A stretch of DNA of 36,292 nt. Source: a virus. The DNA lies in UHGV virus genome UHGV-0154029; one strand, written 5' to 3'. The notes below the pieces were generated by a model, which saw only the letters and a list, made by a program, of their open reading frames with translations, ran no database searches and had not been told where the DNA came from. The stretch's first letter is position 1, and each line of letters starts with the position of its first letter. The position numbers and the translations under genes were made by a program. Of this stretch, positions 18,310 through 33,630 are shown in pieces.

Positions 18310-18789
18310 TTAAATGATTTGCCAGTCTTCAGCCATCAGGTCGCCAATGGATGGAACCCATGTAGCAAGGCGGTTCTGTGAGTTTTTCAATACAAGCGTG
18401 TCATTGAAAGTTGGCTCGCCAACATATTCGCCAAAGCCATAACCCAACGCAGACGCTAATTTTTCCCCTTTCACGAGATAAACAAACTGGTCTTTCCCAT
18501 TCCATCCTGCCCGCTGCAAACTTTTGCCCTGTTTTAACGCTTCCATGGCAAGGCCGAAACTTAGTCCTGATACCGGACGATAAGCCTTTTCGAATACTTC
18601 TTTTGGACTCCAGCTAACGTAGTCATCAAAGCGATCGGTGTTAGGTTTTCCGCCATCCAGATATTCAACCAGATAGCCTTCGTCCTCGCCGTTTTCTCCG
18701 GCAGGAAGCTGCCAGCCACGAAAATCGTTATATGCCTGTCTCGTCATCGGAAAGGCGTTAATCAGTTTTACGCCAATATGCTGGGTCAT
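18310..18789 (-). CDS. DUF2829-like domain protein (Tad2-like candidate anti-defence protein) with extra N-terminal region
   Basis: C-terminal half GLSFGLAMEALKQGKSLQRAGWNGKDQFVYLV...LATWVPSIGDLMAEDWQII carries what I recall as DUF2829 signatures (A..LK.GK...R.GWNGK and PS..DLLAEDW at the C-terminus). From memory, not searched. Confidence 0.55.
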   Translation of the reverse strand: MTQHIGVKLINAFPMTRQAYNDFRGWQLPAGENGEDEGYLVEYLDGGKPNTDRFDDYVSWSPKEVFEKAYRPVSGLSFGLAMEALKQGKSLQRAGWNGKDQFVYLVKGEKLASALGYGFGEYVGEPTFNDTLVLKNSQNRLATWVPSIGDLMAEDWQII

Positions 18790-19010: not shown

Positions 19011-19478
19011 TCATCGAAGGCATTGCGTCCTGATGTATTCCTGAAGCGTTCTCAGTGCTGTTTGGTCGCTGATGATTCCGTCCCGGATACCGAGAACGTT
19101 TCGTCCAGCAACTGGAGAGAGTTCGACGGTGGCATCATTGCCCATGCCGGAGGCGCTGGAGGCTTCGGCTGAGGATGGCATAGGGCATTTTCCTTTGACG
19201 AACACCCGACCACCATTATCAAGCTTGCGCCGAAGAGCATCATTTTCAGCTTTCGCATCAGCTAACTCCTTCGTGTATTTAGCATCGAGTGCATCAGCAG
19301 AACGCTGGCGCTGCTGCATGTCAGTAATGGTGGCGGTCGCCTGCTTCAGCTCACTGACTTTTTTATCTCGCTGTTCTTTGTAGGCGATGGCGTTATCACG
19401 GTAATGATTAACAGCCCATGACAGGCAAACGATGATGCAGATAACCAGAGCGGAGATAATCGCGGTTACTCTGTTCAT
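19011..19478 (-). CDS. Rz: Rz i-spanin (lambda Rz-like)
   Basis: [39 protein letters not shown]... closely resembles lambda Rz. Confidence 0.9.
19052..19258 (-). CDS. Rz1: Rz1 o-spanin lipoprotein, embedded in Rz in the +1 frame
   Basis: Embedded ORF with lipobox (IMVVGC) and a Pro-rich stretch [11 protein letters not shown] as in lambda Rz1. Confidence 0.75.
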
Positions 19479-19951
19479 ACCTCAATCTCTCTGACCGTTC
19501 CGCCCGCTTCTTTGAATTTTGCAATCAGGCTGTCAGCCTTATGCTCGAACTGACCATAACCAGCGCCCGGCAGTGAAGCCCAGATATTGCTGCAACGGTC
19601 GATTGCCTGACGGATATCACCGCGATCAATCATCGGCAAAGCGCCACGTTCCTTAATCTGCTGCAGCGCAACAGCGTCCTGGCTTTTGGGAGAGAAGTCT
19701 TTCAGGCCAAGCTGCTTACGATAGGCATCCCACCAACGGGAAAGAAGCTGATAGCGACCGGCTGCTGTTGATTTGAGTTTTGGGTTTAGCGTGACAAGTT
19801 TGCGAGGGTGATCGGAGTAATCAGTGAATAGCTCTCCGCCAACAATGACGTCATAACCATGATTTCTGGTTTTCTGTCGTCCGTTATCTGTTCCCTCTGA
19901 CCACGCCAGCATATCGAGGAACGCCTTACGTTGATTATTGATTTCCACCAT
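19475..19951 (-). CDS. R: Endolysin, lambda R-type lytic transglycosylase
   Basis: 158 aa; [51 protein letters not shown]... essentially identical to lambda R. Confidence 0.95.
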
Positions 19952-20258
19952 CTTCTACTCCGGCTTTTTTAGCAGCGAAGCGTTTGATAAGCGAACCAAT
20001 CGAGTCAGTACCGATGTAGCCGATGAACACGCTCGTTATATAAGCGAGATTGCTACTTAGTCCGGCGAAGCCGAGAAGGTCACGAATGAACCAGGCGACA
20101 ATGGCGCACATCGTTGCGTCGATTACTGTTTTTGTAAACGCACCGCCATTATATCTGCCGCGAAGGTACGCCATTGCAAACGCAAGGATTGCCCCGATGC
20201 CTTGTTCCTTTGCCGCGAGAATGGCGGATAACAGGTCATTTTTTTCTGGCATCTTCAT
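19935..20258 (-). CDS. S: Holin/antiholin, lambda S-type (dual-start MKM)
   Basis: 107 aa; [51 protein letters not shown]... near-identical to lambda S107. Confidence 0.95.
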
Positions 20259-20500
20259 GTCTTACCCCCAATAAGGGGATTTGCTCTATTTAATTAGGAA
20301 TATGGTCGGTTACTGATAGAACAAATCCAGGCTACTGTGTTTAGTAATCAGATTTGTTCGTGACCGATATGCACGGGCAAAACGGCAGGAGGTTGTTAGG
20401 GCAACCTCATGCCACCCGCTTTCACGAAGGTCATGCGTAGAATGCCGCAGCGTAACTATCACTGATGAATTCAGGATAGCCAGTGGCTACGGCTCAGTTA

Positions 20501-20576
20501 TGGTGCTGGTTAACGGACTTGAACCGCTACCCATTCGCTTACAAGGCGACTGCTCTACCATTGGAGCTAAACCAGC
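20501..20576 (-). tRNA. tRNA, anticodon UGU (Thr) by manual folding
   Basis: Minus-strand 76-nt sequence GCTGGTT-TA-GCTC-CAATGGTA-GAGC-A-GTCGC-CTTGTAA-GCGAA-TGGGT-AGCGG-TTCAAGT-CCGTT-AACCAGC-A-CCA: perfect 7-bp acceptor stem, D and T arms, encoded CCA. Confidence 0.65.
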
Positions 20577-20581
20577 ATATT

Positions 20582-20656
20582 TGGCGGGACAGCGTGGACT
20601 CGAACCACGATAAGAAGGTTAACAGCCTTCCGTAATGACCTTTATACGACTGACCC
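20582..20656 (-). tRNA. tRNA-like gene, anticodon GUU (Asn) by manual folding; possibly degenerate
   Basis: Minus-strand 75 nt GGGTCAG...GAAGG-CTGTTAA-CCTTC-...CGTGG-TTCGAGT-CCACG-CTGTCCC-G-CCA: good T arm and anticodon arm, but a U-U mismatch in the acceptor stem and a weak D stem. Confidence 0.45.
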
Positions 20657-20747
20657 AAATAAAAAAAGCCACCGTTGCAACTTAAGAGTCACTAACGGCA
20701 GCTTATGCCAATAGTGTTGCTCATTTGCTCAATGATGTCAACACGTT

Positions 20748-21236
20748 CTATGCTACATGTTTAATTTTCTCTACACGTTTCCGATTTTTAAACGCACTAT
20801 CCAGAACCGGGTAAATCATAAACAACGAGGCATTAAGGATTTCGTCAACTTCCCGTCGACAGGTTGCGAGCGATGGTTTTTGAATGCGCCCGCCGCCCCG
20901 GCATAACATCTTGCGAGGTCTTGCGACGCGATGATAGTAAGATGCAATGGCGTGCTTGGAAGATCCATGGGCGTAGTAGCTGAGGAGGATGCCAAAGGCT
21001 TTCTTGTCAATGTACATGACGGAATCGACGACCTGAGAAATCAACATTCCATCATCATCATTGCACATTGGCCTTGTCATAACTCTTCCCGGCTCTACGC
21101 TCTCCATGAACTTCGCTATTACGCTGCTCATGCGCTTTTCAAGACGACCTGAATAAACCCATGCGCCCCACAGTTCAAGCCAGCCATTCAGCCACTCCTG
21201 CTGTTCTTTGGTGAGGTTTAGTTCTCTTATGCCCAT
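20748..21236 (-). CDS. Q: Late-gene antiterminator Q (phage 82 / QuuD-type, not lambda-type)
   Basis: 162 aa; motifs ELWGAWV, RPMCNDDDGMLISQVV and ILLSYY resemble QuuD/82-type Q; located between nin genes and the lysis cassette. Confidence 0.8.
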   Translation of the reverse strand: MGIRELNLTKEQQEWLNGWLELWGAWVYSGRLEKRMSSVIAKFMESVEPGRVMTRPMCNDDDGMLISQVVDSVMYIDKKAFGILLSYYAHGSSKHAIASYYHRVARPRKMLCRGGGRIQKPSLATCRREVDEILNASLFMIYPVLDSAFKNRKRVEKIKHVA

Positions 21237-21421
21237 CGTCTTCCCCTCTTGCCCTGTTTGACCATCAGGACGCCGTTAACTATTACGTGACGCTCGCCTT
21301 TGCTGTCTCGGTTGTACTTGAGCACTGTTCCTCTTGCGCAGGAAAGCATCCTTGCCACTTCGGTCTGATTGCCTCGTGTCTGGATAAGAAGCTCTGGTAT
21401 CGTTTGAATTGTGGCGTTCAT
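21227..21421 (-). CDS. ninH: NinH-like protein
   Basis: 64 aa; TIPELLIQTRGNQTEVARMLSCARGTVLKYNRDSKGERHVIVNGVLMV resembles lambda NinH. Confidence 0.75.
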   Translation of the reverse strand: MNATIQTIPELLIQTRGNQTEVARMLSCARGTVLKYNRDSKGERHVIVNGVLMVKQGKRGRRWA

Positions 21422-31129: not shown

Positions 31130-31261
31130 ATGATTTACGCAATCGCGGGAGGCGCTCGCATGGGTGCCTTCCAATTAAATGAATCTTTACTTGAACGAAT
31201 CACCCGTAAATTACGTGACGGATGGAAAAGAGTTGAGGTCTTATTATGCGCAATGAAATAG
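31130..31261 (+). CDS. cIII: CIII-like protein (43 aa)
   Basis: Not in the ORF track. MIYAIAGGARMGAFQLNESLLERITRKLRDGWKRVEVLLCAMK; core LLERITRKLRDGWKR matches lambda CIII; RBS AAGGA. Confidence 0.7.
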   Translation: MIYAIAGGARMGAFQLNESLLERITRKLRDGWKRVEVLLCAMK

Positions 31262-31398
31262 CCATTAATCACCAGATGCTTCGTGCGGCACAAAACAAAG
31301 CAGTAATAGCCAGATTTATTGGTGATTCAAAAATGTGGCTTGAAGCAAATAAAGCGATGAAATCAGCTATCAACCATCCGTGGTATCGCAGGAAATGA
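31246..31398 (+). CDS. kil: Kil-like small protein (50 aa)
   Basis: Not in the ORF track. MRNEIAINHQMLRAAQNKAVIARFIGDSKMWLEANKAMKSAINHPWYRRK; the FIGD.KM motif and position after cIII suggest lambda Kil. Confidence 0.45.
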   Translation: MRNEIAINHQMLRAAQNKAVIARFIGDSKMWLEANKAMKSAINHPWYRRK

Positions 31399-31652: not shown

Positions 31653-32360
31653 ATGGATTTGAATAAATTCGATGAGCCATTCAGCCCTGAAGATATCGAA
31701 TGGCGAATACAGCAAAGCGGTAAAACACGCGATGGCAAGGTGTGGGCTATGGTGCTGGCTTATGTCACGAACCGGGCAATCATGAAACGCCTGGACGATG
31801 TTTGCGGCAAAGCAGGATGGCGCAATGAATACCGCGATATTCCCAACAACGGCGGAGTTGAATGCGGCATATCAATCAAGATTGATTCCGAATGGGTAAC
31901 CAAATGGGATGCTGCTGAAAACACGCAGGTAGAAGCCGTCAAAGGTGGTCGTTCCGGTGCAATGAAGCGCGCTGCCGTTCAGTGGGGAATCGGTCGGTAT
32001 CTGTATAACCTTGAGGAAGGTTTTGCACAAACATCTCTCGATAAAAAGCAGGGATGGCACAGGGCAAAACTCAAGGATGGAACAGGATTTTACTGGCTCC
32101 CTCCATCGCTGCCGGGATGGGCAATCCCAGCATCAGATAACAAACCATCACCAGAAAATACCAACCAGAAATCTCCATCGGTTGACTGCGAACAAATCCT
32201 GAAAGACTTCAGCGATTATGCGTCAACAGAAACTGACAAGAAAAAACTCATCGAGCGTTATCAGCGTGACTGGCAATTAATGGCTGGCAACGAGGAGGCG
32301 CAGGCTAAATGCGTTCAGGTAATGAACATCAGAGTTAACGAACTAAAACAGGCGGCATAA
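31653..32360 (+). CDS. Rad52/Sak-family single-strand annealing protein
   Basis: 235 aa; motif AMKRAAVQWGIGRYLYN is typical of Rad52-like SSAPs; located next to SSB (the position of erf in P22). Confidence 0.8.
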   Translation: MDLNKFDEPFSPEDIEWRIQQSGKTRDGKVWAMVLAYVTNRAIMKRLDDVCGKAGWRNEYRDIPNNGGVECGISIKIDSEWVTKWDAAENTQVEAVKGGRSGAMKRAAVQWGIGRYLYNLEEGFAQTSLDKKQGWHRAKLKDGTGFYWLPPSLPGWAIPASDNKPSPENTNQKSPSVDCEQILKDFSDYASTETDKKKLIERYQRDWQLMAGNEEAQAKCVQVMNIRVNELKQAA

Positions 32361-32834
32361 ATGGCAATCAGAGGCGTAAATAAGGTGATCATTATTGGTC
32401 GCCTTGGGCATGATCCAGAAATCAGATATTCACCATCAGGAACGGCATTTGCAAACCTTACAGTTGCTACGTCAGAACAATGGCGTGATAAGCAAACTGG
32501 AGAGCAAAAGGAGCAGACGGAGTGGCACCGTGTGGTAATTAGCGGGAAACTGGCAGAAATTGCTAGCGAATATCTGCGAAAAGGCTCAGAGGTTTATCTT
32601 GAAGGCAAATTGCGGACAAGAAAATGGCAGGATCAAAGTGGACAGGATCGGTTCACTACCGAAGTCATCGTGGGTGTTGGTGGAACCATGCAAATGCTTG
32701 GTGGCAAGCAAGGAGGCAATGAACAGTCTTCACATCAGCGAAATAACGGTCAGCAACAAAGACAGCAATCTCAGCAGCAGGGGAATCACAGCGAACCACC
32801 TATGAACTTCGACGATTCGGATATTCCGTTCTAG
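32361..32834 (+). CDS. ssb: Single-stranded DNA-binding protein
   Basis: 157 aa; OB-fold N-terminus, Gly/Gln-rich linker and acidic C-terminal tail DDSDIPF. Confidence 0.95.
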
Positions 32835-33336: not shown

Positions 33337-33630
33337 ATGCCAGCGCCTCTGTATGGTGCGGATGACGCGCGCCGCTGTTCCGGCAATTCCGTATCGGATG
33401 TGCTGGATAAATTCAGAAAAAACTACGATCGGATAATGTCGCTACCACAGGAAACGAAAGAGGAAAAGGAATTTCGCCATTGTATATGGCTTGCAGAGAA
33501 AGAAGAACGCGAGCGAATTTACCAGACATCAATCCGACCATTCCGCAAAGCCACATATACCCACTTCCCTGAAATTGACCCGCGCCTGCGTAATTACCGC
33601 TCACGCTATGGCGCTATCAGTAATGACTGA
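33337..33630 (+). CDS. Hypothetical protein (97 aa)
   Basis: ORF only. Confidence 0.5.

Follow-up and report, generated by a model that had tools for sequence, protein, structure and literature searches.

The late region of the virus genome UHGV-0154029 raises the question of why a temperate lambdoid phage should carry two tRNA genes between its Q antiterminator gene and its holin gene, and whether both of these genes still work. The stretch of DNA analysed here, called the window, is 36,292 nucleotides long, and the original prediction, made from its letters alone, had placed a well-formed tRNA-Thr and a possibly degenerate tRNA-Asn between Q and the holin gene, a placement that is correct. 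The explanation favoured here, with a probability of about 0.7, is that the pair forms a functional cassette of the phage 21 type, made up of the first genes of the late operon of a mosaic, P22-like E. coli phage and specifying decoders that differ from those of the host in the anticodon stem.

Over the whole 36-kb window ARAGORN reports two tRNAs in total, both on the minus strand: tRNA-Asn(GUU), 75 nt in length (20582..20656), and tRNA-Thr(UGU), 76 nt in length (20501..20576), with a 5-nt spacer, AAUAU, between them (20577..20581). Both loci are called with the anticodons that had been assigned to them by manual folding, and the coordinates agree to the base. The Rfam model RF00005, for which the gathering score is 29, likewise recognises both genes, at 61.5 bits for tRNA-Thr and 55.3 bits for tRNA-Asn, and CCA is encoded in each. 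In tRNA-Asn the GUU anticodon, the T-loop, the discriminator base G73 and the CCA end are all intact. Synthetases recognise their tRNAs by identity elements that comprise G34, U35, U36 and G73 for Asn, and G1-C72, C2-G71, G35 and U36 for Thr, and all of these are found in the window sequences. The U-U mismatch that had been noted in the acceptor stem of tRNA-Asn is real (U4·U69), and a second mismatch is present at U13·U22. The anticodon arm of tRNA-Thr reads GUCGC-CUUGUAA-GCGAA, in which a G27·A43 mismatch at the top of the stem leaves 4 bp. The tRNA-Thr gene was also considered as an integration site and dropped as such, the UGU tRNA lying far from any integrase gene and P22-like phages using thrW.

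Judged by its sequence, the interval from Q to the holin gene S is a phage 21 late-control module with a tRNA cassette. The Q gene (20748..21236, minus strand) encodes an antiterminator of the phage 21 type, 162 aa in length, which matches Pfam Phage_antitermQ (E = 8e-25), shares 96% identity with its counterpart in the phage 21 record AJ237660, and matches the solved 21Q structures 6JNX and 6P18 over its full length (E about 1e-108). The original prediction had found no convincing late promoter in 20657-20747; however, the PR' of phage 21 is present there (20713..20741, minus strand), near-identical to AJ237660, in which the promoter is annotated. It is composed of a -35 hexamer, TTGACA (20741-20736), and a weak -10, AACACT (20718-20713), that agrees with the consensus at 3/6 positions, and between the two lies the direct-repeat element ATTGAGCAAATGAGCA (20733-20718), whose repeat, ATTGAGCA/AATGAGCA, is the published phage 21 Q-binding element. 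With the transcription start, an A, placed at 20706 by correspondence to AJ237660, the two TGAGCA subsites have their C residues at -21 and -13, in agreement with the 21Q cryo-EM paper.

The promoter is followed by a 50-nt late leader RNA (20657..20706, minus strand) that ends in the intrinsic terminator tR'. The hairpin of tR' (about 20704-20666) leads into a U7 run (20667-20661), and the leader folds at -20.2 kcal/mol (z = -6.1), a stability equalled by 0 of 200 shuffles; the suggestion that a hairpin and a run of seven T residues at 20661-20699 might be a tR'-like terminator is thereby borne out. The leader is the exact counterpart of the feature called ‘aRNA’ in AJ237660, and it also corresponds to tR' features in the Sf6 and HK75 records. 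A consensus promoter and terminator scan of 20100-21300 recovered neither element: PR' was missed by the scan, as it had been by the first reading, because of its weak -10, and tR' because its hairpin contains bulges and G·U pairs. The evidence for both comes instead from folding and from their identity to phage 21. A Q21-family protein is encoded within the fetched flank at 108 of the 133 cassette-bearing loci that are described below. The terminated PR' leader, a constitutive product, is positioned like the StxS small RNA, which is made at the tR' of Stx phages (PMC7547250).

On the other side of the pair, a stretch of 242 nt without an annotated gene (20259..20500, minus strand) separates tRNA-Thr from the holin start. 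No toxin, cargo or other annotated gene was found in this stretch, either among the window ORFs or in the RefSeq annotation of a homologous prophage, which agrees with the earlier statement that no toxin gene is present, and the CUS-3 record calls the equivalent stretch a mosaic ‘boundary sequence’. A 50-aa ORF with a GTG start (20310-20462) was considered as a small added gene and rejected, since RefSeq leaves this part without a gene and the boundary here is conserved and non-coding. With permissive settings, Rfam recognised no RNA family in 20150-20800 apart from the tRNAs. The lysis cassette comes next (19011..20258, minus strand; delimited from ORFs and from the annotation of homologous regions), with the S holin at 20258-19935, the R endolysin at 19951-19475 and Rz at 19478-19011, and with these three genes the protein-coding part of the late operon begins. 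An ORF of 159 aa (18310-18789, minus strand) that lies after them and before the small terminase gene matches PF11195 (E = 6.7e-22), a Tad2-like (Thoeris anti-defence 2-like) domain; going by this domain match, the late operon may have a second gene directed against host defences.

From this arrangement a course of events can be proposed. RNA polymerase would start at PR' (20706) and, to judge by the position of the terminator, would halt at tR' when Q is absent and yield the 50-nt leader only, whereas the 21-type Q, loading at the Q-binding element, would permit read-through of tR' into the Asn and Thr genes and then the lysis and virion genes. It is again position that makes expression of the two tRNAs appear Q-dependent. 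[quoted passage not shown] Once freed, they would supply decoders for ACA/ACG and AAC/AAU with anticodon stems unlike those of the host, and tRNA-Thr would replace host tRNA-ThrU that has been cleaved, as the identical phage 21 allele does. The late timing counts against this explanation, because the tRNAs would arrive only after Q, whose gene has 1 ACA codon and 5 Asn codons, had been translated.

The cassette is by no means confined to the window. Both mature tRNAs agree with their phage 21 counterparts at every position (100%), and the two cassettes differ only by one base in the 5-nt spacer (T versus C). The tRNA-Asn is also 100% identical to the copies in phage L and JLK-2012 and equal to the Sf6 gene, while the pair as a whole is 99-100% identical in Sf6, SfI, HK446 and CurroJimenez_Bas106, as well as in the Salmonella P22-like phages S107, SPN9CC and Oslo. 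The Sf6 record lists tRNA-Asn and tRNA-Thr as ‘similar to phage 21’, with PR', qut and tR' annotated beside them, and RefSeq annotates the Asn/Thr pair in E. coli prophages; a count over complete E. coli genomes found it in 369 of 5426 (~7%). The combination of an Asn(GUU) with a Thr(UGU) gene is met again in P1, N4, CMS-2020a and Klebsiella phage Mulock. The related phages CUS-3 and HK75 are without the cassette, which must therefore be optional. The Asn/Thr pair has already been annotated, the genome papers on SfI, phage L and phage 21 discuss it, and the mechanism for Thr is published; as a discovery the window is thus minor, and its worth is that of a phage late-control module that can be read cleanly and correctly.

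The published mechanism concerns the P2-OLD nuclease. Work on P2-lambda interference published in NAR in 2025 (PMC12445682) reported that P2-OLD kills cells by cutting the anticodon stem of the host tRNA-ThrU at paired CNG motifs, and that phage tRNA-Thr(UGU) genes, explicitly including the ‘tRNA-Thr21’ of phage 21, rescue cells, with a residual small-colony defect, because their products are resistant to cleavage. What makes tRNA-Thr21 resistant, according to that work, is that its anticodon stem is shorter and its CNG motif altered, with changed base pairs such as C28U/G42A, and overexpression of host tRNA-ThrU gave little protection against OLD where the phage alleles did protect (PMC12445682). 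The window tRNA-Thr has the features that were described for OLD evasion, namely the UGU anticodon, the altered motif and the short stem. Host thrU has CUG at 28-30 and CAG at 40-42, with 27:43 paired, whereas the window gene has UCG and CGA at these positions (U28/A42), leaving no CNG at either, and the G·A at 27:43 is unpaired. Nevertheless, OLD may not threaten this particular phage. The window encodes not Gam but the anti-RecBCD protein Abc2 (33337-33630, plus strand; phrog_656, E = 2.9e-54), accompanied by Kil (31246-31398) and a Rad52-family recombinase with SSB (31653-32834), and Abc2, unlike Gam, did not trigger P2-OLD. Among the cassette carriers, 4 of the 133 loci were informative as to Gam versus Abc2, the fetched flanks being short and the Gam query approximate.

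For tRNA-Asn the evidence is of a different kind. Host tRNA-Asn(GUU) was among the tRNAs compared for P2-OLD cleavage (PMC12445682), and the host asnT anticodon stem, CGG/CCG, contains a CNG motif, whereas the phage gene has AAG/CUU; a Klebsiella-lineage copy of the phage Asn gene has CAG/CUG and so has a CNG motif, which counts against a defence role. The AriB nuclease of the PARIS system has tRNA-Lys(UUU) as its primary target and also attacks Thr(UGU) and Asn(GUU), host tRNA-Asn being a secondary target; it cuts at 40|41, and substitutions at 39 and 41 block cutting. Both window tRNAs are substituted at exactly these two positions flanking the cut site, with UAAGCG in place of the host UAAUCA at positions 36-41 of Thr, and UAACCU in place of the host UAAUCC in Asn. 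Compared in this way, tRNA-Asn would seem to lack the host tRNA-Asn motifs targeted by OLD and PARIS-AriB, and by analogy it may follow the same replacement logic as tRNA-Thr. It can be put forward tentatively, as a reading somewhat more likely to be wrong than right, that tRNA-Asn is a second nuclease-resistant replacement and that Asn-Thr is a mobile cassette directed against anticodon-stem Toprim nucleases such as those of the P2-OLD and PARIS-AriB families. If so, U4·U69 and the AAG/CUU stem would be the resistance determinants in tRNA-Asn, and the recurrent pairing of Asn with Thr in lambdoid phages, P1 and N4 would mirror the shared target set of the nucleases. What gives the suggestion its interest is that a tRNA-Asn present in ~7% of complete E. 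coli genomes differs from that of the host exactly where two anti-phage nucleases recognise it. The pair alone should not defeat PARIS, because a tRNA-Lys(UUU), the primary AriB target, is not among the two tRNAs that ARAGORN found in the window, and the tRNA-Lys of T5 is required for PARIS escape.

The alternative that survives best, although it is unlikely, is that the two genes do no more than augment the host's supply for codons in heavy use by the phage and play no part in countering defence nucleases. Support for this comes from the Thr codons: ACA makes up 28.9% of them in 35 window ORFs, about twice the 13.3% found in 58 K-12 genes (those not highly expressed reach 17.2%, those for ribosomal proteins and elongation factors 6.7%; Fisher p = 2e-5). 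The same ACA bias was described in the SfI paper, and E. coli has no UGU tRNA besides thrU (PMC12445682). Coat genes moreover favour AAC, which accounts for 20 of 23 Asn codons in the window and for 24 of 25 in phage L (phage L paper). However, the comparison of codon usage with the host, which had been proposed along with the original prediction, came out in favour of supplementation for Thr and not for Asn: Asn codon usage in the window ORFs is unremarkable relative to the K-12 genes, with no bias that would call for supplementation, SfI has no Asn codon bias either, and Asn codons are common ones served by several E. coli asn genes. Even for Thr the fit is incomplete, as the coat gene, the most expressed of the late genes, avoids ACA (3 of 42 Thr codons). 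Codon supply also fails to explain why, among the copies of tRNA-Thr, the anticodon stem with its destabilising G27·A43 is invariant while pairs of the acceptor stem covary, or why host tRNA-ThrU in excess does not do against OLD what the phage alleles do. It does not explain tRNA-Asn; for tRNA-Thr, extra capacity to decode ACA is plausible as an added benefit that is compatible with a replacement role.

A much less probable alternative, to be given only a slight chance, holds that the tRNA folds serve mainly as elements of RNA processing or stability, at which cuts by RNase P and RNase E would detach the leader and give the lysis mRNA its 5' end, decoding being incidental. It is suggested by the fact that the first base of tRNA-Asn (20656) directly abuts the tR' U-tract and the end of the leader, so that an RNase P cut of the read-through RNA would free the same 50-nt leader as termination does. 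Yet a processing signal would not call for the conservation seen in the anticodons and in the elements that synthetases read; the same lysis genes are expressed by related phages that have no cassette; and for the Thr allele a role in decoding has been demonstrated.

The functional cassette favoured here should bear the marks of selection on both tRNAs, and these were sought in 133 copies of tRNA-Asn, retrieved from public contigs, genomic and viral, by an exact match to a 20-nt seed in the D-arm. The seed fixes 20 of the 75 positions of tRNA-Asn, and the invariance of the Asn D-arm in this collection is therefore by construction. Asn-Thr tandems make up 104 of the 133 copies, and the others include arrays such as Asn-Phe-Thr-Arg, in a Klebsiella lineage, or Asn-Gly. 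Among 18 distinct variants of tRNA-Asn, six pairs have changed on both sides, and five of these are truly compensatory (5:68, 6:67, 7:66, 28:42 and 29:41), the sixth being the mismatch position 4:69. Their covariation score of 0.156 compares with 0.062 in shuffles, was matched by 0 of 500 of these, and exceeds every slid control. Of the 18 variants, 16 leave U4·U69 unpaired, among them three diverged lineages in which the neighbouring pairs have covaried; a mismatch kept in such lineages is a conserved feature and not decay. The tRNA-Thr has four compensatory pairs, again with 0 of 500 shuffles as high and a score above the slid controls, and G27·A43 is unpaired in all 21 of its variants. When 90 distinct Asn-Thr regions are compared, the diversity per site amounts to 0.011 for Asn and 0.030 for Thr; it rises to 0.13-0.14 in leader and spacer, and the flanks reach 0.27-0.33.

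The suspicion that tRNA-Asn is degenerate does not stand up to the five compensatory pairs, the low diversity and the presence of exactly this gene in phage 21, Sf6 and phage L. Least credible of all, and largely refuted, is the broader view that tRNA-Asn, or both genes, are decaying pseudo-tRNAs and passive passengers in a mosaic junction, for which the U4·U69 and U13·U22 mismatches, the ability of CUS-3 and HK75 to manage without the cassette and a clearly degenerate chimeric Thr copy in JLK-2012 might be cited, but against which stand an Rfam score of 55 bits for tRNA-Asn, its compensatory stem changes with U4·U69 conserved across diverged lineages, a diversity about 25-fold below that of the flanks, and an intact G73, GUU anticodon, T-loop and CCA.

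Several members of the collection deserve mention in their own right. The gene annotated as tRNA-Thr in JLK-2012 (locus L010, 1287-1362) is a chimera, with a 5' half of the phage 21 type and an anticodon arm and 3' half that are thrU-like; its stems are broken, and ARAGORN makes no call. One IMG/VR copy has the same junction with a 3' half that is thrU-like and intact, and such junctions suggest recombination between phage and host Thr(UGU) genes. In phage L (locus L006, 987-1058) the tR' and tRNA-Asn are identical to those of the window, and Thr is replaced by a stretch that is annotated as tRNA-Leu(UAA) and for which there is no ARAGORN call. Klebsiella phage Mulock (L007) and IMG/VR loci such as L083, L086 and L107 have expanded cassettes of Asn-Phe-Thr-Arg(UCU), sometimes followed by Gly, in the same slot and built round diverged Asn and Thr copies, and the slot appears to accept additional tRNA genes. 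The exact D-arm of tRNA-Asn was also met in two MAG contigs binned as Segatella copri and Collinsella (L017 and L021), which are probably mis-binned phage or prophage contigs.

The preferred reading, a functional phage 21-type cassette at the head of the late operon, can finally be set beside other systems. The original prediction had likened the locus to the region of Stx phages in which tRNA and toxin genes are found, and the likeness holds for position: the tRNA genes of Stx phages lie between PR'/tR' and stxAB, in the same slot directly after the late terminator and with the same dependence on Q read-through. It does not extend to the tRNAs, as Stx phages of the 933W type carry Ile and Arg tRNAs, and the window in addition has no toxin or cargo gene and has a Q of the 21 type. 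The Stx-phage slot is cited in the SfI paper as well. The Asn/Thr tandem of P1 and the Asn/Ser/Thr cluster of N4 place the same two anticodons side by side, but there Thr is only about 80% similar, Asn belongs to a different family and the promoter context is another; the Thr gene of P1 also retains the CUG/CAG motif, which that of the window does not. The Lys/Thr/Asn set with which T5 neutralises PARIS covers all three targets of AriB, two of which are also encoded in the window, whereas tRNA-Lys is not, and the window phage is a temperate lambdoid and not T5-like. With the OLD-evading tRNA-Thr21 and tRNA-Thr6 (PMC12445682) the window Thr shares the UGU anticodon, the altered CNG motif and the short stem, and its sequence is that of the phage 21 allele on which the experiments were done, so that here the difference is one of context (Abc2, not Gam) and not of sequence. 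Phage 21 itself differs from the window outside the module, where the window is a P22-like mosaic with virion genes resembling those of CUS-3, IME10 and HZ41; within the late region, the two have the same order, the same spacing and the same position after PR'/tR' and before S, together with the same Q21 allele and Q-binding element.
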